A stretch of DNA of 64,000 nucleotides from Candidatus Sericytochromatia bacterium (GTDB lineage Bacteria > Cyanobacteriota > Sericytochromatia > S15B-MN24 > VGJW01): NCBI GenBank assembly GCA_035285595.1, contig JAYKGV010000061.1, forward strand, positions 6,874 to 70,873, in the 5' to 3' direction. The notes under the pieces are model-generated. The model saw only the letters and a list, made by a program, of their open reading frames with translations, was not told where the DNA came from and did not search any database. Made by a program: the position numbers and the translations under genes. The stretch's first letter is position 1; each line of letters starts with the position of its first letter. This document shows positions 19,160 through 57,131 of the stretch, piece after piece.

Positions 19160-20089
19160 ATGAGACATTCCTGGCGAGCGAATATGATGGCAGCCGCGTG
19201 CGCCGCGACGGTGCTTGGCTGCAATGTGTCCCCCGAGACGCTCCAGCAGGCGGTGCAGGAGGCGGCGACCTTGCTCAAGGATGCCGGCGTCAAGCTGGAA
19301 TTCCTGGATGCCGACGGACAGGCCGTGGTGCTGGCTGAAGAGGACATCGATGCGGTCTATCTCGACGGCAAGGAGCTGTCGGCGGCGGACTATGACGTGG
19401 TGGAGGGTGAAGTTCGCTTCAAGGGCCTCGAAGCCGACGACAGGACCCGCAAGGTCGAGATTCGCCTGAAGGATATCGAGCAGCCACTGACCACCACGCT
19501 CGTGGCGAAGGACGGGCGCCAGAAGCCCGCAGAGAACCGCTTGGCCATCGTGCAGGACAGCCTCGGTGGGGTCGTGTTCCAGCCCAACGGTGATTTGGTG
19601 AAGTTGCGCGAGGAGCAGCGCCGCAAGGACGTCCTGTCGCGGGTGACTCTGGACATACGCTACATGGGTTTGCTCAGACCACCGCTGCATGCGGGCTTTT
19701 TCACGCAGGAGGGGTCCTGGAGTCATTTCCCGCGGCCCGAGCAGCCCGCGGCGACCTGGTCCGCCAAGGTCGTGGCCTTTGATGTGCAGGTCTTCAATCT
19801 ACTGGCCCCGAAGCAGCCCCCTACCGCTTCACCCTCGGCCGATCCTGCCCGGCTGCCCGGTGCCGGCCTGTGGGTCTTGGCAGAGCGGCCCGATGGCAAG
19901 GCTGTCATCTATTCGGTCAGATTCACGAAGGCCGATGGCCTGAAGCTGTATCAGCAAGAGCCTCCGATGCCTCAGACGCTTACCTTGGCCAACCTCGCAA
20001 CCAACAGCCCCGAGGTCTTCGACAGCGTCCTTGCAGCCACAGCGGCCAAAAGGATTCGTGAGGTCCCGGCTCCGCCCCAGCCGAACTGA
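19160..20089 (+). CDS. Hypothetical lipoprotein
   Basis: Signal peptide ending in lipobox TVLGC. No recognisable domain. Confidence 0.55.
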   Translation: MRHSWRANMMAAACAATVLGCNVSPETLQQAVQEAATLLKDAGVKLEFLDADGQAVVLAEEDIDAVYLDGKELSAADYDVVEGEVRFKGLEADDRTRKVEIRLKDIEQPLTTTLVAKDGRQKPAENRLAIVQDSLGGVVFQPNGDLVKLREEQRRKDVLSRVTLDIRYMGLLRPPLHAGFFTQEGSWSHFPRPEQPAATWSAKVVAFDVQVFNLLAPKQPPTASPSADPARLPGAGLWVLAERPDGKAVIYSVRFTKADGLKLYQQEPPMPQTLTLANLATNSPEVFDSVLAATAAKRIREVPAPPQPN

Positions 20090-21382: not shown

Positions 21383-22294
21383 ATGGTGCTGGTGAATCCC
21401 GCCGCCCGAAGGGGAGGGCGTCGTGGCTTGCTCGAGGACTTTCTGGCCGGCTTGGCCTTGCCAGGCGCCGTGGGTATCGTCCCGGCCAGTCGCGAGGAGG
21501 CTGTTGCCCGGATGGCCGAGGCAGGGGCAAGGGGACACGACGGCTTGATCGTACTGGCTGGGGATGGAGGACTCAACGCGGCTCTGCCTCCGGCGCTTGC
21601 GCAGAACCTGCCCCTGGCGGTCTGCCCGGCAGGAACGGCCAACGACTGGGCCCGGCACGTGGGGATGCCCCGGCATCCTTGGCAGGCGGGGGCGGCGCTG
21701 CGCTCCGGTCGTCTGGCCCGTGTCGACGTGCTCGAGGTGGAGGGGCGTCCCTTCCTGACCGGCGGAGGCCTGGGCGCCGTAGCGGCCGTGGCCGAGTCCG
21801 TGAACCAGGCCAAGGCGAGGTCCGATGCCCTCGGGGCTTTCACCCGCGCACTCGGGGCGGCTGTCTACTTGGTTCATACGGTCGGGGTCGTGCTCGGGCG
21901 TCAGGATGTGTGGTTCGACTGGACATTGACCCATGAGGACGGCACCGCGCGACAGTTCCGCAGCTTGGCGGTCTTCGTTCACAACGTGCCAACGATCGGA
22001 CACTTCGTCCGCGCCGTGCCTGCGGCCCGTCCGGACGACGGACGCATGGACCTGATGGCGCTGCTGGGAACGGGGAGGCTGGGGATCTTGCGGGATGTCG
22101 CACGGCTGAGCGCCCCGTTCGTCCCGCGCCCCTTTCCCGAGGCACTGCTCGAGGGAGGCCACGCATGGACCCTGGCCGCGGAGCGTCCTTTCGTCTTTCA
22201 CGGAGATGGCGATCCCTTGGCGGAGGGAAAGGTGATGCGCTTCGCCTCGCGGCCTGCGGCGCTTCTCGCGTGGTTGCCGGGACGGGCGGACTAG
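21383..22294 (+). CDS. Lipid kinase, diacylglycerol-kinase catalytic domain family (YegS/BmrU-like)
   Basis: DAGK_cat features (MVLVNPAARRG..., LIVLAGDGGLN). Start at ATG 21383 just after the MFS stop. The ORF-track 370-aa version overlaps the MFS gene in another frame. Confidence 0.6.
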   Translation: MVLVNPAARRGGRRGLLEDFLAGLALPGAVGIVPASREEAVARMAEAGARGHDGLIVLAGDGGLNAALPPALAQNLPLAVCPAGTANDWARHVGMPRHPWQAGAALRSGRLARVDVLEVEGRPFLTGGGLGAVAAVAESVNQAKARSDALGAFTRALGAAVYLVHTVGVVLGRQDVWFDWTLTHEDGTARQFRSLAVFVHNVPTIGHFVRAVPAARPDDGRMDLMALLGTGRLGILRDVARLSAPFVPRPFPEALLEGGHAWTLAAERPFVFHGDGDPLAEGKVMRFASRPAALLAWLPGRAD

Positions 22295-22308: not shown

Positions 22309-23562
22309 TCAGGGGTCGACACGGGCGATCTTGAAATTGGTGTAGATGAATCGGTCCTGGCGATGCAGGACGACAGCCTCGTCATCCAGCGAGGTCAGGC
22401 CCGGCAGGTCGGGCATGGGGCGCTCCAGCAGCGTATTCCACCAGCACAGGCGGGCTCCGGGACGCGCGGAGGCCGTGAGGTCCGCATGCAATGCGACCAC
22501 GTCGGTCCACGGCATCCAGTCGAAGACATTGGACAGATTGAAACGGTCGAAGGTGTCCGGATGAAAGGCATCCTGCAGTTGGCCATGGCACATCTTCAGC
22601 CTCACCAGCCGGCTGGCGAGGTGCTCCTGGTTCTCGCGCGCAAGGTAAGGCGGCAGGGCGACGTCATCCGCGGGCAGAGCTCCCTCGAGTATCAGGCGCA
22701 TGAAGAAATTCTCCCTCATGGGCAGCCCCGTCAGGATGTGTTCCGCACGGGCCCTCAGCGCGTCACCCAGAGCCCCGCCCTCCACTTGCCTGAAGTGAGC
22801 GGGATCCTTGACACGCTCCAGCACGGCTCGACTGAAGAAAGTACGGAAGAGGCCGCGCCAAAGCGCTCCTTGCCAGTGCTCTGAAAACCGGCGCGCCTGC
22901 TCGGCTGGGTCGTCAAGCGTGGCGAACTCCGCAAGGAACCTGTGCCCCAGCACGAGGCGCAGGAGCCTGCCGAAGGCAAGCAGGTAGCGTTCCAGCTTTC
23001 CCGACAGCAGAATCCCCTCTTGCAGGTCACGTCTCTGTTCGTCGAAGAACGCACGGGCATCGGGCGACAAAGCGGTGCGAATCTGCCGGTACAGGCCCAG
23101 ACGATCCCGGGCGGCACCAAAGCCGAGGAGCGCCAGCTTGTCCTCGTGCCCGAGATGGGCCAAGGCTGCCATCTTGAGTTCGAGGACGTGAAGCTGGCGG
23201 ATATTCATGTCCACCACCACGAGTTCTTCGGGATCCTCTGCCAGAAGGGCGAGGCTGTTGCAGCCTCCCGAACCCACGGAAAGGATACGCTGGCCGGGTC
23301 GGGGAGCCAGGGCCCGGAGCATGACCCGGGCATCTTCCCAGCAGTTGGCGTAGCCGATCCCCTGATGGAAGGGACGGGCGGCGATGGCGCGGTTCGGGAC
23401 AGACGCGGAGGAGGGCGAAGTCGGCTTCAAGGCATGACGGACGGGTGGACCGCCGGGGCGGCAGGGGGTATGACCAAAGGATGAGCCAGGCAACTTTGCC
23501 CCAGCATACCCGAGCTCCCGCGTGGCGGCGCTGGTGGGAGTATCAAGCGGAGCGCTTTCCAC
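22309..23562 (-). CDS. DUF3419 protein, BtaA-like SAM-dependent 3-amino-3-carboxypropyl transferase family
   Basis: IGYANCWEDARVM, the Rossmann-like VGSGGCN and LSNVFDWM are characteristic of DUF3419/BtaA N-domain. The true start is uncertain. The longest version overlaps the divergent 23481 gene, and an internal TTG near 23427 is possible. Confidence 0.65.
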   Translation of the reverse strand: MESAPLDTPTSAATRELGYAGAKLPGSSFGHTPCRPGGPPVRHALKPTSPSSASVPNRAIAARPFHQGIGYANCWEDARVMLRALAPRPGQRILSVGSGGCNSLALLAEDPEELVVVDMNIRQLHVLELKMAALAHLGHEDKLALLGFGAARDRLGLYRQIRTALSPDARAFFDEQRRDLQEGILLSGKLERYLLAFGRLLRLVLGHRFLAEFATLDDPAEQARRFSEHWQGALWRGLFRTFFSRAVLERVKDPAHFRQVEGGALGDALRARAEHILTGLPMRENFFMRLILEGALPADDVALPPYLARENQEHLASRLVRLKMCHGQLQDAFHPDTFDRFNLSNVFDWMPWTDVVALHADLTASARPGARLCWWNTLLERPMPDLPGLTSLDDEAVVLHRQDRFIYTNFKIARVDP

Positions 23563-24428
23563 TTGCCACGCATCTGGTAGGCATTCTGCTGTTTTTCGGC
23601 TTGGCGCATGGCGGAGCGGTGGCGCTGGCCACAGAAGGACCGGTCCCGGTGGGCGGCCGCACGGCCCTTGCGTTCTTCCTGACCTTTCAGGTCTTTCTGT
23701 TGCTGCGGGTCATGGACGAGTTCAAGGACTTCGCCGACGATGCGGTCAACCATCCTGAGCGGGTCGTCCAGCGCGGGGTCGTCACGCTACCGGAGCTCAA
23801 GGTCCTCGGCATCGGCATCGGTGTGTCGATGGCAATCCTTGCTCTGGCGCTGGGACGCGAGGGGGTGGTGGGTTTTGCTGCGGTGACGGCTTTTTCGGGG
23901 CTGATGCGCGTCGAGTTTTTCATCGGCCCATGGTTGCGCCAACGGGTCCTGACCTATGCTCTTCTGCACCAGGGCATCGTGCCACTGCTCTGCGTGGCCG
24001 TGGGCCGCCTGGCCGCGGGACCCGCCGGTCTCGGGGCGGAGTACCTGCTGGTGGTGGGAGTCGCGGTCGGGCTTGGCCTCGTCTTTGAACTGACACGCAA
24101 GGCGAGGGCACCGGAAGAGGAGCTTGAAACGCTTGCGACGTACACCCGGGTTCACGGCCCGTTCGGAGCTTCCTTGGCGGCTTTCGTGGCGTTGGCCCTG
24201 GCTGTCCTTGCGGCCAGCTGGTTGGCCCTGCGTCTCGCGCTGCCGGTCGGAAGCCTTGTGCTGGTCCTGCTGTCGGGATTTGCGGGTACTCTGGTTCTCG
24301 GGGTGTTCGCGGTGCGACCGTTTCCTGAAACGGCCAAGGTCGTCCGCATCATGGGCACGGTGGTGTTCGTCCTGATTCAGGCTGCATTGGTCTTGGGCTT
24401 GTGGGTGCAGCGAGGGTTTGCTTGGTGA
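23481..24428 (+). CDS. Polytopic membrane protein, possibly UbiA-superfamily prenyltransferase-like
   Basis: About 9 TM helices. Asp-rich cytoplasmic loop after TM2 (MDEFKDFADD), reminiscent of the UbiA first Asp-rich motif. The second motif is not canonical. Start at ATG 23481. Confidence 0.45.
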   Translation: MSQATLPQHTRAPAWRRWWEYQAERFPLATHLVGILLFFGLAHGGAVALATEGPVPVGGRTALAFFLTFQVFLLLRVMDEFKDFADDAVNHPERVVQRGVVTLPELKVLGIGIGVSMAILALALGREGVVGFAAVTAFSGLMRVEFFIGPWLRQRVLTYALLHQGIVPLLCVAVGRLAAGPAGLGAEYLLVVGVAVGLGLVFELTRKARAPEEELETLATYTRVHGPFGASLAAFVALALAVLAASWLALRLALPVGSLVLVLLSGFAGTLVLGVFAVRPFPETAKVVRIMGTVVFVLIQAALVLGLWVQRGFAW

Positions 24429-27106
24429 ACCGAACATCTGGACCCTCGGCGTTCGAAGCTGCTCATACGCTTGGACGGCTGTTGTTGACCGATGAGGATG
24501 CCGCCAGCGGAGAGCGCGCGCTTGCCGGGGGCAAGGCCGCACAACTGTCCGTCCTGCGCTCGATGGGATTGAGGGTGCCCGGTTGGCTGGTGTTGACGAC
24601 CCATGCCTACGAGCTGTGGCGCCTGGCGGACCAACCCGATCAAGTTCCCCGAGACCTGGCGGAAATCCTCCGGCGCGGCATGGAGGGGCGCTGGGGCGAG
24701 GCGGCGAGCACCATGAGATTCGCTGTCCGTTCCTCGGCCGCAGGCGAAGACAGTGGCTCCAGCTCCTTCGCCGGCCAGTTCCGCACGATTCTGGGTGCCC
24801 TGGGCATCGACGGTGTCCTTGCCGCCCTGCCTGGAGTATGGGGCGCCGCCGCGTCCGAAGGCGTGCTGGCTTATGCTCGCCAGCGGGGGGTGAGTCGAGA
24901 GGCCCTGCGCCTTGCGGTGGTCATTCAGGAACTCGTGGTCCCCGAGGCCAGTGGGGTCGTGTTCTCGGCACATCCGGTCACGGGGGATCGCGAGGAGGTC
25001 GTAGGACGGGTGGGCTGGGGCCTCGGCGAGGGCGTCGTGGCCGATCTGGTCCCCTCGGACGGGTTTTCGGAGCGCACCGGCGAGGTGCGTTACGAAACGG
25101 CAGACAAGGAGTCTGCCGTGGTCCTTGAGCCAAGTGGAACAACGGTGCTGGGACCCGTCGACGAGAATCGACGCCTTGTTCGCTGCCTGACCGATGCCGA
25201 GGTGCGTGAACTGGCTTGCGAAGCCCGCAGGATCGCCCGTCTGGCCGGCCATCCGCAGGACATCGAATTCGCGAGGATGGCCGACGGTTGGGTGTTCCTG
25301 CAGACCCGTCCCGTGACCACGCTTGAACCCGGCTTGCCCTCTTCCGGGAGGGCAGAGGTCCACGTGGGGACGCTCGAACGGCTGTGGGACAACTCGAACA
25401 TCGTCGAGTCTTACAACGGCGTCACGACTCCCCTGACCTTCAGCTTTGCCAGCCAGGCCTATACCATCGTCTACCAACAGATTGCCGCCTTGCTTGGGGT
25501 GCCGCCGCAGACCCTGCAGGCCAATGCGGCGACCTTCAGGAATATGATTGGCTTCCATTCGGGTCGTATTTACTACAACATGAGGAATTGGTATCGCATC
25601 GTCGCCCTGCTGCCGGGTTACGAAGCGAACAAGGCCTTCATGGAACAGATGATGGGCGTCAAGGCCACGGCGCAGGTCGGCGCGGACACGGCGCGCGCAG
25701 GCATGCTGGCCAGGTTCGGGCCGGTCCTCGTGGTGGCGGGTCGCTTGCTCTGGGCATATCTGACCATCGACCGCCGAGTCTCGGCTTTCCAGCACCACTT
25801 CAACCAGGTTTATGAGGCGTGGAGGCACAAGGATTGGGCGAGCATGCCGCCCGATGCCCTGGCCGAGGCTTACGATGAGCTCGAACGTTCCCTGTTGTGG
25901 CGTTGGCAGGCGCCCATCCTGACAGATACCTTCGCGATGGTGGCCTACGGTCTGCTCCGTCGGCTGTGTGATCGCTGGTTGCCGGGGGCGGACTCCTCCT
26001 TGCAGAACGATCTGCTCTCGGGAGAAGGTGGCATCGAATCGACCGCGCCGACGCACTGGTTGCTCCGAAAGGCCGCCGAGCTGGCTTCCCAGCCCGAGCG
26101 AGCCTCAGCGCTGCTGGCGCGGGAGGCAGCCGACGTGCCGGCATGGGTCGACCAGGGCGATCCCGTCCTGGCTTCGGAGGTGGCCGGATTCCTGGATCGA
26201 TGGGGGTTTCGGTGTATGGACGAGCTCAAACTCGAGGAGCCCACGCTCAAGGACGAGCCTTCCTTTGTGTATGCCATGTTGCAGAACTACCTCAAGCTGG
26301 CCGCCGTAGGCCGATTGCCCTCAGCCGATGCGGAATCTGACCTGCGCAAGGCGGCCGAGGCCGAAGTCCGCACGCGATTGCGCGGTCGTCCCCTGCGTGC
26401 CTGGTTGTTCTTCCGTGTGCTGGGCGAGGCTCGCAAACACGTCCGGAATCGCGAGAACCTGCGCTTCTCTCGGACGCGAATCTTCGGCGTATGCCGCGAG
26501 TTGTTCCGTGCGATGGGCACGCATATGACGGCCAGTGGCCTCCTGTCGCGGCCCGGCGACGTCTTTTACCTTACCGTTCCTGAGGTTTGGGCTTGGGCAG
26601 AGGGTCGTGCCGTGACCACGGACCTCAAGGGGCTTGCGGCCTTGCGCGCGAGGCAGTTCGAGTCCTGGAAGACCATGGAGGTGCCCGAGCGTTTCACGAC
26701 GAACGGCGTGCCTTCCCTGTCACGGAGGGACATCGCGCGGTCCGAACGGCGCGCGGGGCCTGACGACGAGGGGGTTCTGCACGGGGTCAGCTGTTGCCCC
26801 GGCAAAGTCACGGCACCGGTTCGTCTGGTGCTGCGTCCTGCCGACGCTGAGGGATTGGCCGGCCAGATCCTGACAACGGTTCGAACGGATCCCGGATGGA
26901 TCCCCCTTTATCCTGCTTCGGCTGGTTTGCTGATCGAGCGGGGCAGCATCCTCTCTCATTCGGCCATCGTGGCACGTGAGATGGGCTTGCCGGCCATCGT
27001 GGGCATTCCCGGCCTGTCCCGGGCCGTGATGGAGGGGCAGACGGTGACGATGGATGGCAGGGCCGGTACCGTGCGGCTCCGCGACCCTGCGGAATCGTGC
27101 GTATGA
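24425..27106 (+). CDS. PEP-utilising enzyme family protein (PPDK_N ATP-binding domain + C-terminal swivel phosphohistidine domain; PpsA/rifampin-phosphotransferase-like)
   Basis: N-terminal GGKAAQLSVLRSMGLRVPGWLVLTT (PPDK_N). C-terminal GSILSHSAIVAREMGLPAIVGIPG (PEP-utilisers mobile domain with catalytic His). About 890 aa. Start assumed at GTG 24425, overlapping the upstream stop (GTGA). Confidence 0.7.
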   Translation: MNRTSGPSAFEAAHTLGRLLLTDEDAASGERALAGGKAAQLSVLRSMGLRVPGWLVLTTHAYELWRLADQPDQVPRDLAEILRRGMEGRWGEAASTMRFAVRSSAAGEDSGSSSFAGQFRTILGALGIDGVLAALPGVWGAAASEGVLAYARQRGVSREALRLAVVIQELVVPEASGVVFSAHPVTGDREEVVGRVGWGLGEGVVADLVPSDGFSERTGEVRYETADKESAVVLEPSGTTVLGPVDENRRLVRCLTDAEVRELACEARRIARLAGHPQDIEFARMADGWVFLQTRPVTTLEPGLPSSGRAEVHVGTLERLWDNSNIVESYNGVTTPLTFSFASQAYTIVYQQIAALLGVPPQTLQANAATFRNMIGFHSGRIYYNMRNWYRIVALLPGYEANKAFMEQMMGVKATAQVGADTARAGMLARFGPVLVVAGRLLWAYLTIDRRVSAFQHHFNQVYEAWRHKDWASMPPDALAEAYDELERSLLWRWQAPILTDTFAMVAYGLLRRLCDRWLPGADSSLQNDLLSGEGGIESTAPTHWLLRKAAELASQPERASALLAREAADVPAWVDQGDPVLASEVAGFLDRWGFRCMDELKLEEPTLKDEPSFVYAMLQNYLKLAAVGRLPSADAESDLRKAAEAEVRTRLRGRPLRAWLFFRVLGEARKHVRNRENLRFSRTRIFGVCRELFRAMGTHMTASGLLSRPGDVFYLTVPEVWAWAEGRAVTTDLKGLAALRARQFESWKTMEVPERFTTNGVPSLSRRDIARSERRAGPDDEGVLHGVSCCPGKVTAPVRLVLRPADAEGLAGQILTTVRTDPGWIPLYPASAGLLIERGSILSHSAIVAREMGLPAIVGIPGLSRAVMEGQTVTMDGRAGTVRLRDPAESCV

Positions 27107-28161
27107 ACTCGTGGACCGGTGATGAGCCCGCTGCCCTGGAGGCCTGGGCCGAAGTGGCCGGGAGGGTCTGGCGTCATCGACCGGTCTTGCCCCCGCCTGA
27201 TCCGGGCCGCTTGGGGGCCACGCTCACGCGATTGTCCAACTGGGCCCTGCCCCGGCATTTTGCCGTTCCGGGCAAGGCAGCCTTGATGGCGTGGCATTTG
27301 CCTGACGGGGTGACGGGGCATTTGGGTGCCTTCGAGGCGATGCCTGAACCGGAAGCTGCAGGTCGAGTCTTGCAGGAGGCTCTCGCCTGGCTGCATGAGC
27401 GTGGCGCCAAGGTGGCTCTTGGCCCCATCGACGGGGATGCCTGGGAGCGTACCCGCTTCAGTCTTGGGCCGGAGGACGAGCCGGCCTTCCTGCTCGAGCC
27501 GGAGAATCCGCCGGAGTATCCCTTGTTCTGGGAGGCGGCCGGCGGGAGCATCAGTCATCGTGTGTGGACCCAGGTGCAGGAAGATCCTCGGGCCGCGGCG
27601 GAAACTCTTGCGGATCACGTACGCTCTGTGAAGGAGGCCGGGTACCGGATCGCCCCGGTGACCGGTCGTTCCTGGCGGCAAGATTTGAAGGATCTCAAGG
27701 CGCTGGTCCCCGAGGTCTTCGCCGGCGGACTGCCCCTGGCGCCCATGGCCGAGGCGGACTTCGTCGCCCGATTTGCCCCTTTCTCGCCTCTGTGGCGCAG
27801 CGGACTGTCCTTTGTGGCCCGTGACGCAGGGGGCAAGGCTGTCGGATTCCTGCTGGGCCTGCCCGATCTGCGGCCTTGGCTGGGAAGGGCGGGTGGGCTG
27901 GCGGGACGGCTGGGCCTGGCTTGGCGGATCACGCATCCTCGCCGTGCCGTCCTCAAGACCTTGGGGGTTGCCCCCGCTCATCGGCGTGTGGCCCTCGGAC
28001 ATGCGCTCGCGTACGCTTTTCATCGACGGGCGGCGGCACTTGGCGTTCCGACCGTCCTCCACGCACTGATGGCAGAGGGCAATCCCTCGCGCCATATGTC
28101 CGACAAGCTCGGGGCGAGGGTCTGTCGTTCCCACGCATTGTTCAAGTGGGACCTGCGTTGA
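27103..28161 (+). CDS. GNAT-fold (FemAB/BioF2-like) putative acyltransferase
   Basis: About 350 aa with weak GNAT-like C-terminal half (AVGFLLGLPD..., ALGHALAYAF). The ATG overlaps the upstream stop (ATGA). Assignment is tentative. Confidence 0.4.
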   Translation: MNSWTGDEPAALEAWAEVAGRVWRHRPVLPPPDPGRLGATLTRLSNWALPRHFAVPGKAALMAWHLPDGVTGHLGAFEAMPEPEAAGRVLQEALAWLHERGAKVALGPIDGDAWERTRFSLGPEDEPAFLLEPENPPEYPLFWEAAGGSISHRVWTQVQEDPRAAAETLADHVRSVKEAGYRIAPVTGRSWRQDLKDLKALVPEVFAGGLPLAPMAEADFVARFAPFSPLWRSGLSFVARDAGGKAVGFLLGLPDLRPWLGRAGGLAGRLGLAWRITHPRRAVLKTLGVAPAHRRVALGHALAYAFHRRAAALGVPTVLHALMAEGNPSRHMSDKLGARVCRSHALFKWDLR

Positions 28162-29654
28162 CGGGGAGCCTTTGCGGTATCCTGGCCGAGCATGCTCGCG
28201 AGCGGCCGCAGGCACCGGCGCTGTTCGTGCCGGTCGGCCGAGGAGGGCGGCAGCATAGGCGGGTGACCTTCGGGGAGCTGGCCGCGTCCGTGCGCCGGCG
28301 GGCGGAGTGGTTGCAGCACCGGGGCGTCAGGCCGGGTGACCGAGTCCTGCTGTTCATACCGATGTCCGAGGAACTCTATGTCTGGTTGCTCGCCTTGTGG
28401 TGGGTGGGCGGAGTGGGTGTGTTCCTGGATCCGTGGATGGGCTTTCGGGCACTTGCCGAGGCCATCGAGCGGACGAGCCCCGTGGCGATGGTCCTGCCGC
28501 CTTGGGGACGTATGCTTCGTCATGTCCTGCCTGTTTGGCGAAAGGTGCCAGCGTGCTGGCCGACCGGGGAGCCGCTGCCGGTCAGGGATTCGGTGAGTTC
28601 CCTGCCCTTTCCTGCACCCGAAGGACACCCGGCGCTCGTGACGTTCACCACGGGCAGTTCGGGCCGCCCCAAGGGCGCGGTGCGGTCCCACGGTGTCTTG
28701 CTGGCCCAACACCAGCTGCTCTCCCGGGAGCTGGGAGATGGCCCGGGGGATGTGGCGATGGCCACCCTGCCCATTTTTACCCTCCATCATCTCGCGGCCG
28801 GAGCGGCGGCCATTTTGCCTTTGCGCCATCGTCTGGCGGGTGACGAGCAGGGCGCGGCAGCTGCTTGGAGGCAGATGGCTGCCCTCGGGGCGACCTTGGT
28901 CGTCGTTTCGCCGGCGTTGCTGCGTTCGTGGTTGGAATTGAACCAGACCTTGCCGGGCTTGCGGGCCGTGTTCGTGGGAGGCGGGGGTGTCGACCCGGAG
29001 TTGCCTATTCGGGCGGCGAAGGTTTTTCCTGCTGCCCGCGTGGCCATTGGCTACGGGTCGACAGAGGCCGAACCTGTGTCCATGGCCAGAGGAGATGGCC
29101 CCAGCCACGCGGAGGCACGTGAGCGTACCCTGGCCGGCGAAGGCCTTTGCGTCGGGTGCCCGGTACCGGGGGTCGAGATCCGCTTGCGCGAAGACGGCGA
29201 GGTGCTTGTTGCCGGACCCCATGTCGTGACCGAGTATTGGGGCGTCGACGGCTTGCCCCCTGGTAAGTCCCGGGATGGGGCGGGGAACTTATGGCACGCG
29301 ATGGGCGACGTGGCCCGTCAGGACCCTGACGGATGTCTGTGGTTGCTGGGGCGGACCGGAGACCCGGTGCTCCCCCAGGGCAGCGTGCGGCACGCGCTGG
29401 CCCTCGAATCTCTCGTCACGTGCCGGGGCTGGTCGAGGGGGGCTGCGCTCGTTGCGCTGCAGGGTCGGCCTATCCTGGCCGTCGAAGGCGGGGTGGAACC
29501 GGTCTTGCGCGAGGGCTTGGCGGAGCTTGGACTCTCCGACCTTGCCGTGGTGGCGGTTCGTCGGATCCCAAGGGATCCAAGACACCGGACCAAGGTCGAT
29601 CGGGTGGCCCTGCTGCGGCAGTTGGCACGCAAAGGGTACACTTGGACCCCATGA
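28158..29654 (+). CDS. Adenylate-forming enzyme (acyl-CoA synthetase / fatty acyl-AMP ligase family)
   Basis: AMP-binding P-loop TFTTGSSGRPKGA and YGSTE motif. Start assumed at TTG 28158 overlapping the GNAT stop (TTGA). The ORF-track version extends upstream in-frame. Confidence 0.75.
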   Translation: MTGSLCGILAEHARERPQAPALFVPVGRGGRQHRRVTFGELAASVRRRAEWLQHRGVRPGDRVLLFIPMSEELYVWLLALWWVGGVGVFLDPWMGFRALAEAIERTSPVAMVLPPWGRMLRHVLPVWRKVPACWPTGEPLPVRDSVSSLPFPAPEGHPALVTFTTGSSGRPKGAVRSHGVLLAQHQLLSRELGDGPGDVAMATLPIFTLHHLAAGAAAILPLRHRLAGDEQGAAAAWRQMAALGATLVVVSPALLRSWLELNQTLPGLRAVFVGGGGVDPELPIRAAKVFPAARVAIGYGSTEAEPVSMARGDGPSHAEARERTLAGEGLCVGCPVPGVEIRLREDGEVLVAGPHVVTEYWGVDGLPPGKSRDGAGNLWHAMGDVARQDPDGCLWLLGRTGDPVLPQGSVRHALALESLVTCRGWSRGAALVALQGRPILAVEGGVEPVLREGLAELGLSDLAVVAVRRIPRDPRHRTKVDRVALLRQLARKGYTWTP

Positions 29655-30226
29655 ATGCGCTTTCTCGTTTCGGCATCCTGGCCGCGGCCCTTATGGCGGT
29701 TCCCTTCGTCGGCCTCGCGCTCGCAGGACTCCTGGGTCCCAAGGTCGTCACACGCTCCTCGGAGCGGGTCATCGAGGCTCCCCCGTCCAAGGTCTGGCTG
29801 GCCATCACCTCATGGGACCTCTGGGCCGCCAAAGGGGACCCGATGATGCCTGCTGTCGGCACCCGTTCCGTCTCGCCGGCCACCGGCAGCCCGGAGGTCA
29901 TCCGGTATGCGATTGGCGCACAGGGCCAGACCTGGGAGCAGGAGGTTGCGGCATGGGAGCCCGAGCGTGTCTATGCCTTCCGAAATCGGCCCAAGGTAGG
30001 AGCGCCCTCTGCTCCCATGTTGATGCGCTTCGATCTGGAACCTGTCGGCACGGCGTCCGTGAAGGTTCGCTTCGCAACTCGGCTGGAGCCCAAGACCTTC
30101 CTCGATCGTTCCTTCGGGGTGGTTTTCGGTCTGGGTATCGGGACCCTCGAGGGCTATCAACGCGCCTTGCTCGATGGACTGGAAGGTTGGGCCGAGGGCA
30201 AGCCGGCTTCAGGCTCCGCCAGCTGA
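29651..30226 (+). CDS. SRPBCC-fold (polyketide cyclase/START-like) protein with N-terminal hydrophobic segment
   Basis: MNALSRFGILAAALMAVPFVGLALAG TM/signal segment followed by an SRPBCC-like pattern (VIEAPPSKVWLAITSWD...). The ATG overlaps the ligase stop (ATGA). Confidence 0.55.
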   Translation: MNALSRFGILAAALMAVPFVGLALAGLLGPKVVTRSSERVIEAPPSKVWLAITSWDLWAAKGDPMMPAVGTRSVSPATGSPEVIRYAIGAQGQTWEQEVAAWEPERVYAFRNRPKVGAPSAPMLMRFDLEPVGTASVKVRFATRLEPKTFLDRSFGVVFGLGIGTLEGYQRALLDGLEGWAEGKPASGSAS

Positions 30227-30229
30227 CGC

Positions 30230-30637
30230 TCAATCGGTCGAGACCGGGCTGTCCCACGGGACGGGCCGCCCATCCGGCCCGATGGTCACGAAAATGGCCT
30301 CCGCCGTGGTGACCACGACGGGATCCGCATCACGGCCCCTGCGTCGTGCTTCGACCCTGATACCTATCGTCAGGCTTGTCCGGCCTCGATGCTCGAGCCG
30401 AGTATAGAAACTGACGGTGTCTCCCACGTGGACCGGTTGTTCGAACTTGACCTCTCGCAGGGCGACCGTCACGAAGCGATGATCCGTGTGGCGACCTGCC
30501 TCGACGGCCGCGGCGAGGTCCAAGTGGGATAGGATCACCCCCCCGAAGATCGTCCCGTGCTCGTTGGTGTCCTTGGGCAAGAGCAGGACGCGAATCGAAG
30601 GTTCCTGGGGCCAGGTGTCAGGTTGAGCGGTCAACAT
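30230..30637 (-). CDS. Hotdog-fold acyl-CoA thioesterase
   Basis: LLPKDTNEHGTIFGGVILSHLD...VHVGDTV is typical of YciA/4HBT-like thioesterases. Convergent with the SRPBCC gene; the stops are 3 nt apart. Confidence 0.75.
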   Translation of the reverse strand: MLTAQPDTWPQEPSIRVLLLPKDTNEHGTIFGGVILSHLDLAAAVEAGRHTDHRFVTVALREVKFEQPVHVGDTVSFYTRLEHRGRTSLTIGIRVEARRRGRDADPVVVTTAEAIFVTIGPDGRPVPWDSPVSTD

Positions 30638-32027: not shown

Positions 32028-33248
32028 ATGATCTTCCTGTCGCAGTACCTTAATCGCCCCGTGAGGGGGGTCGCCGGTGCGCGTCTGGGGGTCTTGAGAG
32101 ATGTGACCTTCACGGAGGATGGGGATTTTCCGGTTTTGACCGGACTCGTGGTCAGTCGTGGCAGACGACGGGTCGTGGTGCCATGGTCCGATGTCGATCG
32201 GTGTACGCTCGACACCTTTGTGCTGCGGGGTACGGGACCGTGGCCCGAGGTGGCTGGAGTGGACCGACTTCTTGCCTTGGACGTCATGGACAGTCAGGTC
32301 GTTGATATCGACGGGGCCCACGTCGTACGGGTCAATGACCTCCAGCTCGCGTGGCAAGGCACGCGCCTGCGTGTGGTGGGCGTCGATATCGGGCCGTGGG
32401 GACTTGCCAGAAGACTTGGATGGGCGCCTGCCTTGGCGTGGGTCAGCAGGACCCTTCGCTGGCAGCCACCGGAAGGCCTGATCCGTTGGGACACGGTGGA
32501 ACCGGTGGACAAGCAGACCTCCACCGTGCGGCTTCGGGTCTCCAGCGACCGGCTCGCGCGCCTGCACCCGGCCGACCTCGCGGACATCGTGGCCGAGCTG
32601 GGCCACGAACAACGCAGTCACGTGCTCGAGCGGCTGGATGATGCTCAGCTGGCAGACATCATGGAGGAGGCGAGTCCGGAGTTGCAAAGCGCCATCCTGG
32701 ACAATCTTGACGAGGATCGAGCGGCGGATGTCCTTGAAGAGATGGAGCCCGATGAGGCCGCCGACCTGCTCTCCGAATTGAGTGAAGACCGCGCACGGGA
32801 TCTCATCGGTCGCATGGATGCGGAAGATGCGAGTGACGTCCGGAATCTTCTGGCTTATCAGGAAGGCACCGTAGGAGCCTTGATGACGACCAGCTACTTG
32901 GAGATACCTGCAAGCTGGACGGTAGGGCGGGCCTTGGATTGGGTTCGTCGCGAGGGTGCCGACGACGAGTTGTGCAGTTATCTCTATGCGGTCGACGAAG
33001 CGGGCATCCTGACCGGTGTCCTGTCGTTCCGGCACCTGGTCCTTGCCACGGCCGACGCACCCGTGACTGGCCTTTTCCCGGATCACCTCGTCACGGTGGG
33101 TGTCTTGGAGCCTGCACGCGCGGCCCTTGAGAAACTCTTTCACTACAATCTGCTGGCCGTGCCGGTGACTCGCGAAGACGGACGCTTGCTCGGCGTGGTC
33201 GGCATTCTGGATGCCTTGGCACTCGTCCACGAACCGGAGGAGGACTGA
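32028..33248 (+). CDS. PRC-barrel + MgtE N-terminal domain + tandem CBS domain protein (soluble MgtE-like sensor)
   Basis: N-terminal PRC-barrel-like region, an acidic helical MgtE_N region (LDEDRAADVLEEMEPDEAADLLSEL), then a CBS pair. No TM domain. Confidence 0.7.
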   Translation: MIFLSQYLNRPVRGVAGARLGVLRDVTFTEDGDFPVLTGLVVSRGRRRVVVPWSDVDRCTLDTFVLRGTGPWPEVAGVDRLLALDVMDSQVVDIDGAHVVRVNDLQLAWQGTRLRVVGVDIGPWGLARRLGWAPALAWVSRTLRWQPPEGLIRWDTVEPVDKQTSTVRLRVSSDRLARLHPADLADIVAELGHEQRSHVLERLDDAQLADIMEEASPELQSAILDNLDEDRAADVLEEMEPDEAADLLSELSEDRARDLIGRMDAEDASDVRNLLAYQEGTVGALMTTSYLEIPASWTVGRALDWVRREGADDELCSYLYAVDEAGILTGVLSFRHLVLATADAPVTGLFPDHLVTVGVLEPARAALEKLFHYNLLAVPVTREDGRLLGVVGILDALALVHEPEED

Positions 33249-34576
33249 TGCCGGGCACCGGTAAGCTGCACGCTTCCGAGGCCGAAGCAGACGCTCTCGT
33301 CACCATTCGTTTCAACAAGCGACGATGGCTGTTGCTGCTGGGGACCCTGGGGCCAGGTATCCTTGCCTCGAGCGCGGGCAATGACGCGGGTGGCATCGCG
33401 ACCTATGCCACGGCGGGCGCACGATATGGTTACGGTCTCCTGTGGGCCTTGCTGCTCATCACCGTGGCGTTGGCCATGATTCAGGAAATGGCTACGCGGA
33501 TGGGGGCGGTGACGGGCAAGGGCCTGTCCTCACTCATCCGCGAACGCTTCGGCTTGCGGGCGACAGTCTTCGCCATGGGCTGCCTCCTCGTGGCGAATGT
33601 GGCCACGACGCTGGCCGATTTTGCCGGCGTGGCGGCCGCCGCAGAACTCTTCGGCGTCCCACGATGGGTGGCGGTGCCGCTGGCGGGCGTCGGCCTGTGG
33701 TGGTTGGTCGCGCGAGGGAGCTTTGCCCGGGTCGAACGTACCTTCATGGCACTGGCGTTGGTGTTCCTGACCTATGTCGCGGCCGCCTTCCTGGCGCGTC
33801 CGGATTGGACGGAGGTTCTGCGAAGCCTCGTGGTACCCCGGGTTCCCGCCACTCCCCCCGGCCTCGCTTTCCGTGACCACCTTCAGGGCTACTTGCTTGT
33901 GCTGATCGCCACCATCGGCACCACCATCACTCCGTGGATGCAATTCTTCCTGCAGGCGACCGTCGTCGACAAGGGTGTGACCATCCGGCAGTACGGATTT
34001 GCGCGCTTTGATGCTTTTTTCGGGGCCTTCACTGCAGATTTGGTCTCGTTCTTCATCATCGTGGCGACGGCTTCCGCCCTGTTCTATCCCGAGATGCTGC
34101 CGCATCCCCTCGAGGATGCCGCTGCGGCGGCCTCTGCGTTGGTGCCCGTGGCGGGCCCCCACGCCGGTTGGCTCTTCGGGGCTGGCTTGCTCGGGGCCTC
34201 GTTGCTTGCGGCCTCTGTCGTGCCGTTGGCCACGGCCTATGCCGTCTGCGAGGCCTTCGGCTTCGAGGCCGGACTGGGCAAGGACTTTCGTCGTGCCCCG
34301 GTCTTTCTCGGCCTCTACACCTTGCTCATCGGGGTCGGGGCATGCGTCGCGATGTGGCCCGGCCTTCCCCTTCTGGCCGTGATGCTCGTTGCCCAGGACA
34401 TCAATGGAATCCTTTTGCCCGTCATCCTCGTCTACATGCTGGGACTGGTGAACGACCGTCGCCTCATGGGGCCTCATGTCAACGGCGTGGTCTACAATGC
34501 GGTGGTTTGGGGGATGGTGATTCTGGTGTCCTTGCTGACGGCCACCATGGTGGTGACCAGTTTCTGGCCCGTGTGA
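33248..34576 (+). CDS. Nramp-family (SLC11) transporter with non-canonical metal site; NRMT-like
   Basis: LeuT-fold Nramp topology. TM1 motif reads ...SAGNDAGGIATY (DAGG in place of DPGN). TM6 reads IGTTITPWMQFF (TPW in place of MPH). The ATG overlaps the upstream stop (TGATG). Confidence 0.7.
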   Translation: MPGTGKLHASEAEADALVTIRFNKRRWLLLLGTLGPGILASSAGNDAGGIATYATAGARYGYGLLWALLLITVALAMIQEMATRMGAVTGKGLSSLIRERFGLRATVFAMGCLLVANVATTLADFAGVAAAAELFGVPRWVAVPLAGVGLWWLVARGSFARVERTFMALALVFLTYVAAAFLARPDWTEVLRSLVVPRVPATPPGLAFRDHLQGYLLVLIATIGTTITPWMQFFLQATVVDKGVTIRQYGFARFDAFFGAFTADLVSFFIIVATASALFYPEMLPHPLEDAAAAASALVPVAGPHAGWLFGAGLLGASLLAASVVPLATAYAVCEAFGFEAGLGKDFRRAPVFLGLYTLLIGVGACVAMWPGLPLLAVMLVAQDINGILLPVILVYMLGLVNDRRLMGPHVNGVVYNAVVWGMVILVSLLTATMVVTSFWPV

Positions 34577-56600: not shown

Positions 56601-57131
56601 GCCCATTTCCTCGAGCACCTCACGGCTGAGATGGGTCGGCGGCTCGGCCTGCCGGATGGTGATCTCGAGGCGCTTGCCCTGGCCTCCCGCTTTCATGACC
56701 TCGGCAAGGTGGCGGTGCCTCCGCAAGTTCTCCACAAGCCGGGTACCCTCACCCCCGAAGAACGGGCTGTCGTGGAGGTCCATCCGGAGGTGGGTGCACG
56801 CCTGCTGGCCCCCGTGGCCCGTCAGCCCGCTGCTGTCGCGGCCATCCGTCACCACCACGAGCGCTTCGACGGCACGGGATACCCCGCGGGTCTCGCAGGC
56901 GAGCAGATCCCCTTGCTGGCGAGAATCCTGGCCGTGGCCGAGGCCTGGGATGGCATGACGTCTCCCAAGGCTTGGCGACCCGCCTTGCCCCCCGACCTTG
57001 CCCTGGCCGACATGCGAACGTCGGGACATTTCGATCCGGCGCTCCTCGATGCCTTGGCGGGGATGCTCGACGCCGGGGCGCTGATCCGGCACGGACGTTT
57101 GCCGCTGACGGGGTCTGCCCCTGTCTGTTAG
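53688..57131 (+). CDS. Membrane sensor with GAF - GGDEF - GAF - HD-GYP domains (predicted bifunctional c-di-GMP cyclase/phosphodiesterase)
   Basis: N-terminal about 8 TM helices. Coiled-coil with L-x-R-T-N repeats. GGDEF with intact RYGGEEF and I-site RETD. C-terminal HD-GYP (HDLGK...HHERFDGTGYP). Confidence 0.8.
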   Translation: MAGDPVRGTGTPAPAPVVSGPWSRRYFVAVTSVGWLLAAGFLADLIWKGEALRALSEPLLLLFLALGLFSESFQISLPRGGRMSPSFAVFFSCLLEHGPFPTLLVIFAGGLGAALFQARPLAAGLFNTAQYVLATVGAHLVLTAGGHVPAAWQATSPGVFAVAALVFVGLNAVLVDGYFAIERRQSLWTLLWRDDRWEFIFTLLQAPIAIMVPWLLHTYAWQVSALVLVPFLASTILFLQVIRSRQIRRELAERNTSLAEAVEGLDRTNRQLARTNEDLDAANHQLARTISDLDGANRELRVLHGVASAISGSTDLAETLREIGAGIRQVFDPGACLLILGDKESGELAPVDLDGLTPAEGTLPEGWVLRVANLVQAREDVLLIEDLRESELGEGLPPGMHASLLAAPIRTDEGFAGLLCLLDPEPAAFSPREGELLATLAAHATFAIRKAQLYQATQLLAITDGLTGVYNRRYLQRQLESELRRASRLGHGTSVVLLDVDFFKAFNDSHGHLLGDQVLRSLAQVLRDSVRETDVVARYGGEEFAVILPETPLEAAMAVVARFRTRLRQHPFWGRSQTPVQVTVSIGLSHHVTSRTTADELLDRADQALYAAKHGGRDRVFGWDSEAESPLQMASPEAGSQPRQPIRQSAVLDRGRWASWLAEGVAPAAQRCSQAMRLCGAVGQMENTAEVLAGQARQLLLLRLEAGAAEAGDPEEAVAFYQALRAEAVGWLTAGISLTQAENVILVLLGAFQEHVRHGPFSPQDKLIVLSGLEWLSRQSMLALSLVWHESYQQANRDLLLLERMDRVTGGLDPWLEQALDVLREAFGGLPVLLMAREPDGMVLRARSGGDGVWRVPADVTWPEGLATADAAFTVSAPFGVGEEARGELMPQALVLPLRHEGQLLGAVLVGLREGRRVGSRERRLARTVAGRVASALGRALLEERRHEAYLSAIGELVGSLEAQDGYEQGHAHFLEHLTAEMGRRLGLPDGDLEALALASRFHDLGKVAVPPQVLHKPGTLTPEERAVVEVHPEVGARLLAPVARQPAAVAAIRHHHERFDGTGYPAGLAGEQIPLLARILAVAEAWDGMTSPKAWRPALPPDLALADMRTSGHFDPALLDALAGMLDAGALIRHGRLPLTGSAPVC

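Follow-up and report, generated by a model that had tools for sequence, protein, structure and literature searches.

A UbiA-fold membrane protein coupled to an Rph/PigC-type phosphotransferase in a Candidatus Sericytochromatia genome, and its possible role in membrane-lipid modification

Organization of the locus

The window, that is, the whole 64,000-nt stretch of DNA analysed here, derives from a Candidatus Sericytochromatia MAG. Five genes on its + strand, called A to E here, encode a divergent UbiA-superfamily intramembrane transferase (A, 23481..24428, 315 aa), a phosphotransferase with ATP-grasp, substrate-binding and swivelling-His domains in the Rph-PigC architecture (B, 24425..27106, 893 aa), a protein with a C-terminal GNAT domain (C, 27103..28161, 352 aa), an adenylate-forming ligase of the ANL type resembling PRK09274 and OleC (D, 28158..29654, 498 aa) and an SRPBCC protein (E, 29651..30226, 191 aa). 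They are joined by four 4-nt stop/start overlaps, which were read directly: GTGA at 24425 (A/B), ATGA at 27103 (B/C), TTGA at 28158 (C/D) and ATGA at 29651 (D/E). The stop of E ends at 30226 and that of the convergent gene F (30230..30637, − strand, 135 aa), a YciA-like hotdog acyl-CoA thioesterase, lies at 30230-30232, so that 3 nt separate them. An earlier note on this DNA had described overlapping codons at each junction, a thioesterase gene on the opposite strand that ends 3 nt from them and, on this basis, one tightly coupled operon; all of this is borne out, and its six domain assignments hold.

The public gene call for the identical contig gives the same coordinates for B, C, D, E and F and the same overlaps, and differs in the start of A, which it places at GTG 23445, whereas a 315-aa NCBI protein (P0124) matches ATG 23481. 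The B/C, C/D and D/E overlaps are also present in a relative (locus L004) with about 60% protein identity. Gene D has an unusual TTG start, which is supported by the recurrence of the C/D overlap in L004.

Two genes just upstream, absent from the operon of the earlier note, are real members of the cluster. The first (21383..22294, + strand, 303 aa) encodes a soluble lipid-kinase homologue with DAGK_cat (58.4 bits) and YegS_C (36 bits) domains, and the second (22309..23430, − strand), divergent from A, encodes a homologue of the BtaA-like SAM-dependent 3-amino-3-carboxypropyl-transferases (Pfam DUF3419, 181.8 bits; cut-off 28.2 bits). For the latter, TTG 23430 is the likelier start, because the public start, ATG 23322, removes a conserved YANCWED motif from the predicted protein. 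The start codons leave an intergenic region of about 50 nt between the DUF3419 gene and A (23431..23480), which presumably holds promoters for both directions; no match to the sigma-70 consensus was found in it. Farther upstream, a 301-aa protein weakly matching Methyltransf_25 (19184-20089) is syntenic in the closest relative only.

The coupled pair A and B

Protein A has the all-helical polytopic UbiA-type fold, and its top structural matches include UBIAD1 and ApUbiA. The window protein itself has no Pfam match at E <= 0.01; 40 of 46 orthologues match UbiA (PF01040; best E 1.1e-15), and the consensus of the family reaches 62.9 bits, above the cut-off of 34.2 bits. The closest relatives by sequence in the PDB are DGGGP synthase and chlorophyll synthase. 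The first Asp-rich motif, (N/D)DxxDxxxD, is present together with the RPLxxG-type loop after it (D79-E80-F-K82-D83-F-A-D-D87...P92-E-R94-V-V-Q-R98-G99) and is aligned by the family profile to NDIFDIEID...PSRPLPSG of DGGGP synthase, and to chlorophyll synthase. The second (DxxxD, near the end of the sixth helix) is absent, as judged by equivalence of helix boundaries; that region holds invariant E203, R206 and K207 (E-x-x-R-K), followed by P211 and E214. Because the second motif is replaced in this way, the donor of A may be something other than a normal prenyl diphosphate.

Protein B contains PPDK_N (168 bits) and PEP-utilizers (71.5 bits) domains, and a precomputed annotation adds Rph_4th. 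ATP-grasp residues are invariant among homologues, as is the swivel-domain motif G840 S841 x L843 S844 H845 in 38 of them. In the Rph/PigC-type enzyme class, the swivelling histidine phospho-activates the substrate (PMC13534948). The best NCBIfam model is NF004881 (PRK06241.2-2), on which B scores 779.7 bits, just below the cut-off of 883, and the orthologues of Bdellovibrio bacteriovorus and of a member of the Victivallales score 1327 and 868 bits; it is the nearest named family, bears the generic name 'phosphoenolpyruvate synthase' and has no characterised function. The family of B is large, with 3684 proteins at E <= 1e-50 in one search and more than 598 loci among GTDB species genomes. As a prodiginine ligase equivalog B was rejected (RedH, 277.6 of 1350 bits; PigC, 238.1 of 1300 bits), although it aligns to both models over nearly its whole length.

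The genes might also be unrelated, with B a stand-alone rifamycin phosphotransferase, which the earlier note had named as an alternative, or a PEP synthase that merely shares the operon. Homologues of B are publicly named 'phosphoenolpyruvate synthase', 'pyruvate, water dikinase' or 'rifampicin phosphotransferase', and B has its ATP-grasp and swivel domains in common with Listeria RPH. However, B scores only 287.7 of 999 bits and 233.5 of 1700 bits on the rifampin phosphotransferase models NF041857 and NF000283, and these matches are confined to residues about 73-303 and the C-terminus. Similarly, phmmer aligns B with Listeria RPH only in residues 70-342 (the ATP-grasp domain) and in the swivel domain, and finds no alignment for the substrate-binding domain. 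The PEP synthase model TIGR01418 gives 176.5 bits against a cut-off of 739.75, and no match to the PEP-utilizers_C TIM-barrel (PEP/pyruvate) domain was found in B. Moreover, the neighbours of B do not vary freely and the coupling of A with B is kept across phyla, and thus the view that the genes are unrelated is effectively refuted; B is neither a rifampin phosphotransferase nor a PEP synthase.

Conservation of the cluster

The locus was compared with a set of 81 related ones, drawn from 15 or more phylum-level lineages, which include Cyanobacteriota, Acidobacteriota, PVC phyla, Bdellovibrionota, Myxococcota, Bacteroidota, Gemmatimonadota, Chloroflexota and Omnitrophota. Gene A lies directly upstream of B in 66 of the 81. 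Their junction was measured in 60 loci: stop and start most often overlap by 4 nt, as they do in 25 of these, and in roughly 50 they are no more than about 20 nt apart. Such overlaps are frequent in operons and are weak proof on their own; unlike them, the adjacency of A and B found again in so many lineages points to more than chance. The conserved core is the UbiA-fold protein A translationally coupled to the Rph/PigC-type phosphotransferase B.

Among the partners of this core, D is found in 55 of the 81 loci, DUF3419 in 53 and the GNAT protein C in 41. Other companions are a lipid kinase, either of the DAGK_cat type (no more than 10 kb from B in 15 loci) or a polytopic protein for which no family assignment was found (memb7 hereafter), and often a thioester reductase, either an HMG-CoA reductase homologue or one of the FAR type. 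Genes of the lipid-export type (MMPL/sterol-sensing, LolA-like, MacB/FtsX) occur in 9-10 loci. The closed chromosome of a member of the Victivallales has a clean seven-gene operon, HMGR-DUF3419-memb7-C-D-A-B, and Bdellovibrio bacteriovorus carries the cluster as well (locus L060).

The usual gene order in the other loci is C-D-A-B, which differs from that of the window, and the conserved couplings are those of A with B and of C with D. Therefore, co-expression in the gene order of the window, which the earlier note had taken to be stoichiometric, is not a conserved feature, and the block A-E is not a conserved unit. As for co-occurrence in other genomes, A, B, C and D are found together with one another elsewhere, and homologues of E are restricted to the two closest relatives. 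The earlier interpretation is thus retained as to the coupled operon, the domains and a combination that belongs to no described pathway (full-text literature searches found no description of this gene cluster), and is revised as to the five-gene unit, the gene order and the two upstream members that it missed.

Several parts of the cluster appear to replace one another. Within a subset of 51 loci, each with A, B and D, the GNAT and formyltransferase genes never occur together (33 loci with the first only, 9 with the second only, 9 with neither; p 1.6e-5, ignoring phylogeny). The same is true of memb7 and DAGK_cat (26, 13 and 12 loci, respectively; p 1.1e-5, again without regard to phylogeny), which do not occur together in the whole set of 81 either, and of HMGR and NAD_binding_4 (19, 7 and 25 loci; p 0.037, likewise uncorrected for phylogeny). 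These alternating pairs point to three roles, namely capping of an amine, phosphorylation of a lipid alcohol and reduction of a thioester.

Genes C to F

Protein C matches Acetyltransf_1 at residues 233-337 (23.6 bits; cut-off 20.7 bits) and FR47 (22.6 bits), and has a conserved N-terminal half with the motif GPxxGxxWxxxRF. Its family, with 810 representatives of 50%-identity clusters at E <= 1e-10, has a consensus that scores 62.4 bits for GNAT, and the family profile matches N-acetyltransferases of the amino-acid kind in the PDB, namely Naa10, EctA and phosphinothricin N-acetyltransferases (PAT); the predicted 3-D model of C itself (pLDDT 46) is unusable. The earlier idea of C as the transferase for the acid that D activates is weakened, because in nine loci a formyltransferase, which needs no acyl-CoA, stands in place of C while D is retained.

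Protein D matches AMP-binding (164.9 bits) and has the motifs TGSSGRPKG, GYGSTE and GDVARQDPDG and the C-terminal lysine in RTKVDR. Its best model, NF006754, gives 256.4 bits against a cut-off of 478, and the next best are olefin beta-lactone synthetase and AA-adenyl-dom; in the PDB, the nearest sequences are those of the LgrA A-domain (top), FadD5 and FadD13. The short length of D and the FACS and NRPS types of these PDB matches argue against a FAAL.

Protein E, in which a Polyketide_cyc2 domain (34.8 bits; cut-off 27.4 bits) follows an N-terminal hydrophobic segment, begins with MNALSRFGILAAALMAVPFVGLALAGLLG. Among the 81 loci, homologues of E are confined to the two closest relatives, L004 and L005, and E is a lineage-specific last gene of the operon. 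Protein F is a clear 4HBT protein (52.5 bits; cut-off 20.6 bits) and scores 70.1 bits on the YciA model (cut-off 162 bits); its homologues, too, are limited to L004 and L005 among the 81 loci. Because the S8, MgtE and Nramp genes downstream of F are syntenic in these same two loci, the conservation of F is inseparable from plain synteny, and it is uncertain whether F is a member of the pathway.

These genes could also be read as a pathway for a specialised small molecule that bears a prenyl group, for instance a quinone-like cofactor or a meroterpenoid, in which D would activate an aromatic or other acid as its CoA thioester, F hydrolyse a CoA intermediate, A prenylate the ring and E bind the product. 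In quinone synthesis, the corresponding parts are MenE, DHNA-CoA thioesterase, MenA/UbiA and the Coq10-type SRPBCC proteins, and the presence of a UbiA fold, a hotdog thioesterase and an SRPBCC protein at one locus recalls the men and ubi pathways. The structural matches of A to UBIAD1 and ApUbiA and a weak match of D to MenE (TIGR01923, 79 bits) are consistent with this. However, D scores far higher on models of the PRK09274 and OleC types, E and F are missing outside the closest relatives, and there are no MenF/D/H/C/B-type, chorismate-utilising or PKS enzymes among the conserved neighbours. DUF3419, the lipid kinases and B would have no role, and an operon found in at least 15 phyla with genes of the LolA and MMPL types resembles envelope lipid biology more. 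A prenylated small molecule is therefore improbable as the product.

A possible lipid pathway

The cluster may make a modified membrane lipid, probably an isoprenoid- or alkyl-linked one, the window holding the Sericytochromatia version of a set of genes that is widespread but uncharacterised; to this reading we assign a probability of about 0.5. We infer every chemical step from family membership and gene context. Synthesis would start with phosphorylation of a lipid alcohol by the lipid kinase. B would then phosphorylate the lipid phosphate again, or phospho-activate it, through its swivelling phospho-histidine, and A could make an O-linked (ether or ester) lipid from the activated donor. 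DGGGP synthase and chlorophyll synthase, which make O-linked lipids, offer parallels to this step, and the succession of kinase, kinase and UbiA enzyme would be like that of phytol salvage. DUF3419 would add a SAM-derived 3-amino-3-carboxypropyl (homoserine-type) head group, as BtaA does; the amine of the head group would be N-acetylated by C; and D may adenylate the carboxylate of this group as a step towards its transfer or, where a lineage has a reductase, its reduction. Finally, the anchored SRPBCC protein E might hold or carry the hydrophobic product, a task that LolA-like and MMPL proteins may perform in other lineages.

Neither a reductase nor memb7 was found in the cluster of the window, and the full scheme cannot run as written in this genome. 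The HMG-CoA reductase homologue in the operons of other lineages might simply make mevalonate. To our knowledge, the targets of Rph-type enzymes are hydroxyl or carbonyl oxygens and not phosphate monoesters; thus, conversion of a monophosphate to a diphosphate by B would be a novelty for the family. It is a tentative proposal, held with less confidence than a lipid product as such, that in a new lipid pathway the swivelling-His phosphotransferase supplies the donor to a non-canonical UbiA enzyme (E-x-x-R-K), giving an ether or ester isoprenoid or alkyl lipid with an N-acetyl or N-formyl homoserine-type head group.

The polarity may also be the reverse: the kinase would make a lipid or polyprenyl monophosphate, B would activate a polar molecule made by DUF3419, C and D, and A would join this polar group to the lipid phosphate, much as the UbiA-family decaprenyl-phosphate phosphoribosyltransferase joins a PRPP-derived polar group to a lipid phosphate. 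Enzymes of the B type (Rph, PigC/HapC) are known to act on small molecules, soluble or amphipathic, which they activate or modify by phosphorylation, the invariant R206-K207 of A could bind a phosphate monoester, and alternation of DAGK_cat and memb7 fits production of a lipid phosphate acceptor. However, it is DGGGP synthase and chlorophyll synthase, and not DPPR synthase, that the sequence profile of A matches, a monophosphate is a poorer leaving group than the diphosphate of PRPP, and no enzyme of the sugar or PRPP type is found in the conserved neighbourhood. Reverse polarity is accordingly considered unlikely.

If the lipid pathway with B supplying the donor is true, it would provide a new lipid class spread over many phyla, the first metabolic role of the Rph/PigC-type phosphotransferase family outside resistance and pigments, and a type of donor chemistry that is new among UbiA enzymes, extending the chemistry of both families. 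The product could be a missing membrane lipid common to predatory bacteria, PVC bacteria, Acidobacteriota and the non-photosynthetic relatives of cyanobacteria, and ether or isoprenoid lipids from such groups bear on the reading of environmental lipid biomarkers. A large-scale misannotation would be corrected if a large clade of the B family proved to be obligately partnered with a UbiA-fold membrane enzyme. Bdellovibrio bacteriovorus is a tractable model in which direct testing is possible.

Comparison with known systems

Archaeal DGGGP synthase (PDB 6m31, 7bpu) differs from A in that the two are only 13-17% identical, in that A has E-x-x-R-K for the second Asp-rich motif, and in the lack of GGGP synthase and G1P dehydrogenase genes in the neighbourhood of the cluster. 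Rph and PigC/RedH/HapC resemble B in so far as B aligns to the PigC and RedH models over its full length, but B lies far under all curated cut-offs, its substrate-binding domain has diverged, and it is paired with an adjoining UbiA-fold membrane protein. We know of no Rph or PigC/RedH/HapC enzyme with such a partner.

The cluster of the window shares with betaine-lipid (DGTS) synthesis by BtaA/BtaB a BtaA-type DUF3419 domain, which is also carried by the algal betaine-lipid synthase BTA1 (PMC10685587), and a DAG-related kinase gene adjoins DUF3419 in the window. What is conserved with the cluster is not a BtaB-type N-methyltransferase but an enzyme for N-acetyl or N-formyl capping, and the head group would thus be N-acylated and not trimethylated. 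The top PDB match of D to the A-domain of LgrA, together with a Formyl_trans_N gene that in the nine formyltransferase loci mostly lies directly upstream of D, recalls the formylation-adenylation unit of LgrA, in which the amino acid that undergoes adenylation is also N-formylated. However, D is closer to ligases of the PRK09274 and OleC types, carrier-protein and condensation domains are absent from this cluster, and the formyltransferase is a separate gene that in the window is replaced by the GNAT.

In phytol salvage, the phytol kinase VTE5 and the phytyl-phosphate kinase VTE6 act before ChlG and homogentisate phytyltransferase (HPT). The second kinase of the present cluster is an ATP-grasp/swivelling-His enzyme of the Rph/PigC type and not of the VTE6/DUF92 type, the first is DAGK_cat or memb7, and homology searches showed no relation of the cluster kinases to VTE5 or VTE6; furthermore, phytol salvage has no counterpart to the ligase, GNAT and DUF3419 genes. 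What the two systems share is a lipid-alcohol kinase with a second phosphotransferase adjoining a UbiA-fold transferase, and a sequence profile of A that matches chlorophyll synthase.

Organization of the Cluster and Its Surroundings

The operon consists of five + strand genes, namely A (23481-24428; predicted divergent UbiA-superfamily transferase), B (24425-27106; Rph/PigC-type phosphotransferase), C (27103-28161; GNAT with a conserved N-terminal half), D (28158-29654; ANL adenylate-forming ligase) and E (29651-30226; SRPBCC protein with a hydrophobic N-terminus), which are joined by 4-nt stop/start overlaps (GTGA at 24425, ATGA at 27103, TTGA at 28158 and ATGA at 29651, read directly from the junction sequence). 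The convergent - strand gene F (30230-30637; YciA-like hotdog thioesterase) ends 3 nt beyond the stop of E at 30226. The four overlaps and the 3-nt gap, first described in the earlier note, are confirmed by the direct reading of the junctions, by an independent gene call on the public copy of the contig (L001), in which the coordinates of B to F and the 4-nt overlaps are identical, and by one of the two closest relatives (L004), in which the B/C, C/D and D/E overlaps are kept at ~60% protein identity, which speaks for TTG as the start codon of D. The start of A differs by source, being GTG 23445 in the independent gene call and ATG 23481 in the matching 315-aa protein of NCBI.

Directly upstream of A, on the - strand, is a gene for a BtaA-like protein (181.8 bits) with the DUF3419 domain, as in betaine-lipid synthase BTA1 (PMC10685587), and upstream of this lies a + strand DAGK_cat/YegS_C kinase gene. 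In the region of the DUF3419 gene (window 22309-23562, - strand), the conserved YANCWED motif at the N-terminus is lost when translation begins at the public start, ATG 23322; TTG 23430 is the likelier start, and would leave ~50 nt of divergent intergenic DNA to the ATG of A.

The window has a G+C content of ~65%, and its remainder is ordinary chromosome. Neither tRNA genes nor Rfam families at the gathering threshold were found anywhere in the 64 kb, and a search for DNA signals gave no promoter match and terminator-like sites at background frequency. A 301-aa weak Methyltransf_25 protein, an MFS transporter, COX15, an S8 peptidase, MgtE and Nramp were rejected as members of the cluster because they are syntenic in the closest relatives only. 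The MgtE-like and Nramp transporter genes (32028-34576) overlap by 1 nt at 33248 and are kept as a pair in both closest relatives (L004 and L005); this pair appears unrelated to the cluster. Two large signalling proteins, one of GAF-GGDEF-GAF-HD type (1147 aa; 53688-57131) and the other of adenylate/guanylate cyclase-AAA_16-TPR type (990 aa; 10580-13552), look like products of ordinary chromosomal genes.

Conservation of the Cluster across Genomes

With an alignment of B homologues as the query, at least 598 loci were retrieved from GTDB species genomes, and the best 80 were analyzed together with L004, partners being counted within 10 kb of B. Among these 81 loci, the UbiA-fold gene A was present in 66, D in 55, DUF3419 in 53 and C in 41. 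The less frequent partners were memb7 (a polytopic protein of ~450 aa; 29 loci), an HMG-CoA reductase (HMGR) homologue (21), DAGK_cat (15), an MMPL/sterol-sensing-domain protein (10), a LolA-like protein, Formyl_trans_N and a 697-aa NAD-binding protein (9 each), and a FAR-type NAD_binding_4 reductase (8). The loci belong to Cyanobacteriota (Sericytochromatia, Melainabacteria and Stenomitos), Acidobacteriota, Verrucomicrobiota/Lentisphaerae/Kiritimatiellae, Planctomycetota, Bdellovibrionota, Myxococcota, Bacteroidota, Gemmatimonadota, Chloroflexota, Desulfobacterota, Fibrobacterota, Omnitrophota and several candidate phyla.

The usual gene order is C-D-A-B, and a closed Victivallales chromosome carries a clean operon of HMGR-DUF3419-memb7-C-D-A-B (L085, 2593-12736). 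Of the 60 loci measured, 25 have a 4-nt overlap between the stop of A and the start of B, and in ~50 the two lie within ~20 nt of each other. The possibility that the genes are functionally unrelated is essentially excluded, and we rate the cluster as a putative lipid or isoprenoid biosynthetic operon. The co-occurrence in other genomes on which the earlier note made its reading depend holds for A to D and fails for E and F; each of the latter is found in only 2 of the 81 loci, L004 and L005, where unrelated downstream genes are syntenic as well. Further homologues of E or F were absent from the 81 loci even at a phmmer E-value of ≤ 0.01.

Also among the loci is a Thermoplasmatales archaeon MAG contig (CAYZTD010000006.1; L046) whose gene arrangement, DUF3419-DAGK_cat-A-B...D, C, matches that of the window, either by horizontal transfer or by mis-binning. 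In Thermoanaerobaculia and Holophagales (L024:1505-5852 and L008:10-3376), C-D is immediately preceded by genes for a 578-aa PLP-dependent Beta_elim_lyase-type protein and an unannotated 530-aa protein, both of which may contribute further steps to the pathway. The HMGR homologue is class-I-like (Pfam, 377 bits) and lies inside the operon (21 loci, including L014/L085, L035, L055, L062 and L080); other mevalonate-pathway genes were not found among its conserved neighbors.

The Core Pair of Genes A and B

Domain and profile searches uphold the UbiA, PEP-utilizing, GNAT, adenylate-forming ligase, SRPBCC and hotdog thioesterase assignments of the earlier note. The A protein of the window alone has no Pfam match and matches NCBIfam "prenyltransferase" models weakly; Pfam UbiA is matched by 40 of 46 A orthologues and by the family consensus (62.9 bits; cut-off, 34.2). 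When the family profile was compared with PDB sequences, DGGGP synthase (E = 3.6e-12) and also chlorophyll synthase were matched, the first motif, D79-E80-x-K82-D83-xxx-D87...P92-x-R94-xxx-R98-G99, aligning to NDIFDIEID...PSRPLPSG. In the A family, the place of the canonical second DxxxD motif is occupied by an invariant E203-x-x-R206-K207. Judged by these matches and both motifs, A is predicted to be a divergent member of the UbiA superfamily with a non-canonical second site.

Pfam detects PPDK_N and mobile PEP-utilizers domains in B, to which precomputed Pfam adds Rph_4th, and does not detect a PEP/pyruvate TIM barrel. NF004881 is the best NCBIfam model (779.7 bits, just below the 883-bit cut-off) and is passed by the Bdellovibrio orthologue at 1327 bits. 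Assignment of B as Rph (287.7 bits; cut-off, 999), PEP synthase (176.5; 739.75), PigC (238; 1300) or RedH (278; 1350) was rejected. Alignment with Listeria RPH is confined to the ATP-grasp and swivel domains, and the swivel-domain motif GS-LSH is invariant in 38 B homologues. Proteins of this architecture transfer a phosphoryl group from ATP, via a swivelling His, to a substrate in the middle domain, and in PigC/HapC this transfer activates the substrate for condensation (PMC13534948).

Genes C to F and Their Alternatives

The C-terminal part of C is a GNAT domain (Pfam; family consensus, 62.4 bits), and the family profile matches amino-acid N-acetyltransferases, namely Naa10, EctA and phosphinothricin acetyltransferases. 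Its N-terminal half is conserved, with the motif GPxxGxxWxxxRF; alignment of the N- and C-terminal halves of the family by hhalign (E = 0.0034; probability, 9.5%) is at most faintly suggestive of two GNAT domains in tandem. A structure model built from three sequences had a pLDDT of 46 and was left out of the fold search. An exhaustive search placed 810 clusters of 50% identity in the C family at E ≤ 1e-10, and no annotation exists for this family. Word-indexed searches returned 3 proteins for C and 10 for A, and breadth was therefore taken from the loci and the exhaustive search.

D is closest to the PRK09274 and OleC-type beta-lactone synthetase models of NCBIfam; among solved sequences, it comes nearest to the LgrA A-domain and to the acyl-CoA synthetases FadD5 and FadD13. 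In Bdellovibrionota, an alpha/beta-hydrolase module of ~240 aa precedes D, in one ORF with it in L060 (6734-9142) and separately in L069 (6758-7426). The hydrophobic N-terminus of E lacks a lipobox cysteine, and F resembles YciA-type hotdog thioesterases.

Three pairs of partners exclude each other in the 51 loci holding A, B and D, with p-values that ignore phylogeny. GNAT and formyltransferase never occur together (GNAT only, 33; formyltransferase only, 9; neither, 9; p = 1.6e-5), nor do memb7 and DAGK_cat (26, 13 and 12, respectively; p = 1.1e-5) or HMGR and NAD_binding_4 (19, 7 and 25; p = 0.037). Formyl_trans_N takes the place of C in several phyla (L038, L044, L049, L058, L060, L066, L069, L073 and L079), the swap being seen in Bdellovibrionota and in the other-type clusters of Kiritimatiellae, Omnitrophota and Tritonobacter. 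memb7 accompanies HMGR, and NAD_binding_4 accompanies DAGK_cat in Bdellovibrionota. One of 24 memb7 members matches Pfam CTP_transf_1; matches were not obtained in NCBIfam, in a profile search of PDB sequences or with the family consensus against Pfam. The memb7 motif DAxAAxIGxRYG...KSLEGS may resemble those of dolichol and phytol kinases, and memb7 was left without a family assignment. We infer pathway roles in amine capping, as lipid-alcohol kinase and, in many lineages, in thioester-to-alcohol reduction.

In the siderophore logic of SidI/SidF, HMGR yields mevalonate, the ligase forms mevalonyl-CoA and the GNAT transfers the mevalonyl group. This scheme was rejected because it leaves unexplained the persistence of D where a formyltransferase replaces the GNAT; for the same reason, D is probably more than a supplier of acyl-CoA for C.

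Proposed Pathway and Comparison with Known Systems

In the pathway that we propose, the lipid kinase and B would jointly yield a phosphorylated lipid donor, which A would join to an oxygen nucleophile in the manner of DGGGP synthase, which forms an ether, or chlorophyll synthase, which forms an ester. The reverse polarity, in which a polar group is moved onto a lipid phosphate as by DPPR synthase, is unlikely, and a specialized prenylated small molecule as the product is less likely again. For the preferred lipid or isoprenoid product, the DUF3419 protein would add a 3-amino-3-carboxypropyl group taken from SAM, in the way that BtaA does; the amine would be capped by C or the formyltransferase and the carboxylate adenylated by D, with subsequent reduction in lineages that have a reductase. 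The hydrophobic product would be bound or carried by E in the lineage of the window, a role that LolA, MMPL and MacB-type genes may take elsewhere. Homologues of HMGR, NAD_binding_4, memb7, MMPL and LolA were not found in the 64 kb of the window. Lacking a reductase and memb7, the window version of the pathway may end at an earlier step or draw on genes located in other parts of the genome.

The cluster is strongly conserved, is misannotated on a large scale in public databases, and is present in the tractable model organism Bdellovibrio bacteriovorus (NZ_CP168974.1, 1426829-1449501; L060). Full-text literature searches found no description of it, in agreement with the earlier note, which did not recognize the combination as any described pathway; the UbiA and acyl-CoA-ligase operons of the Lipocone paper are different systems. 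The component superfamilies are known and their combination is undescribed: in particular, no counterpart has been published for the obligate pairing of a UbiA-fold protein with an Rph/PigC-type phosphotransferase in the company of a BtaA-like gene, a ligase gene and a GNAT or formyltransferase gene. That product and donor chemistry are both new is a tentative suggestion. The kinase-kinase-UbiA logic proposed for the lipid kinase, B and A of the cluster parallels that of phytol salvage in plants and cyanobacteria.
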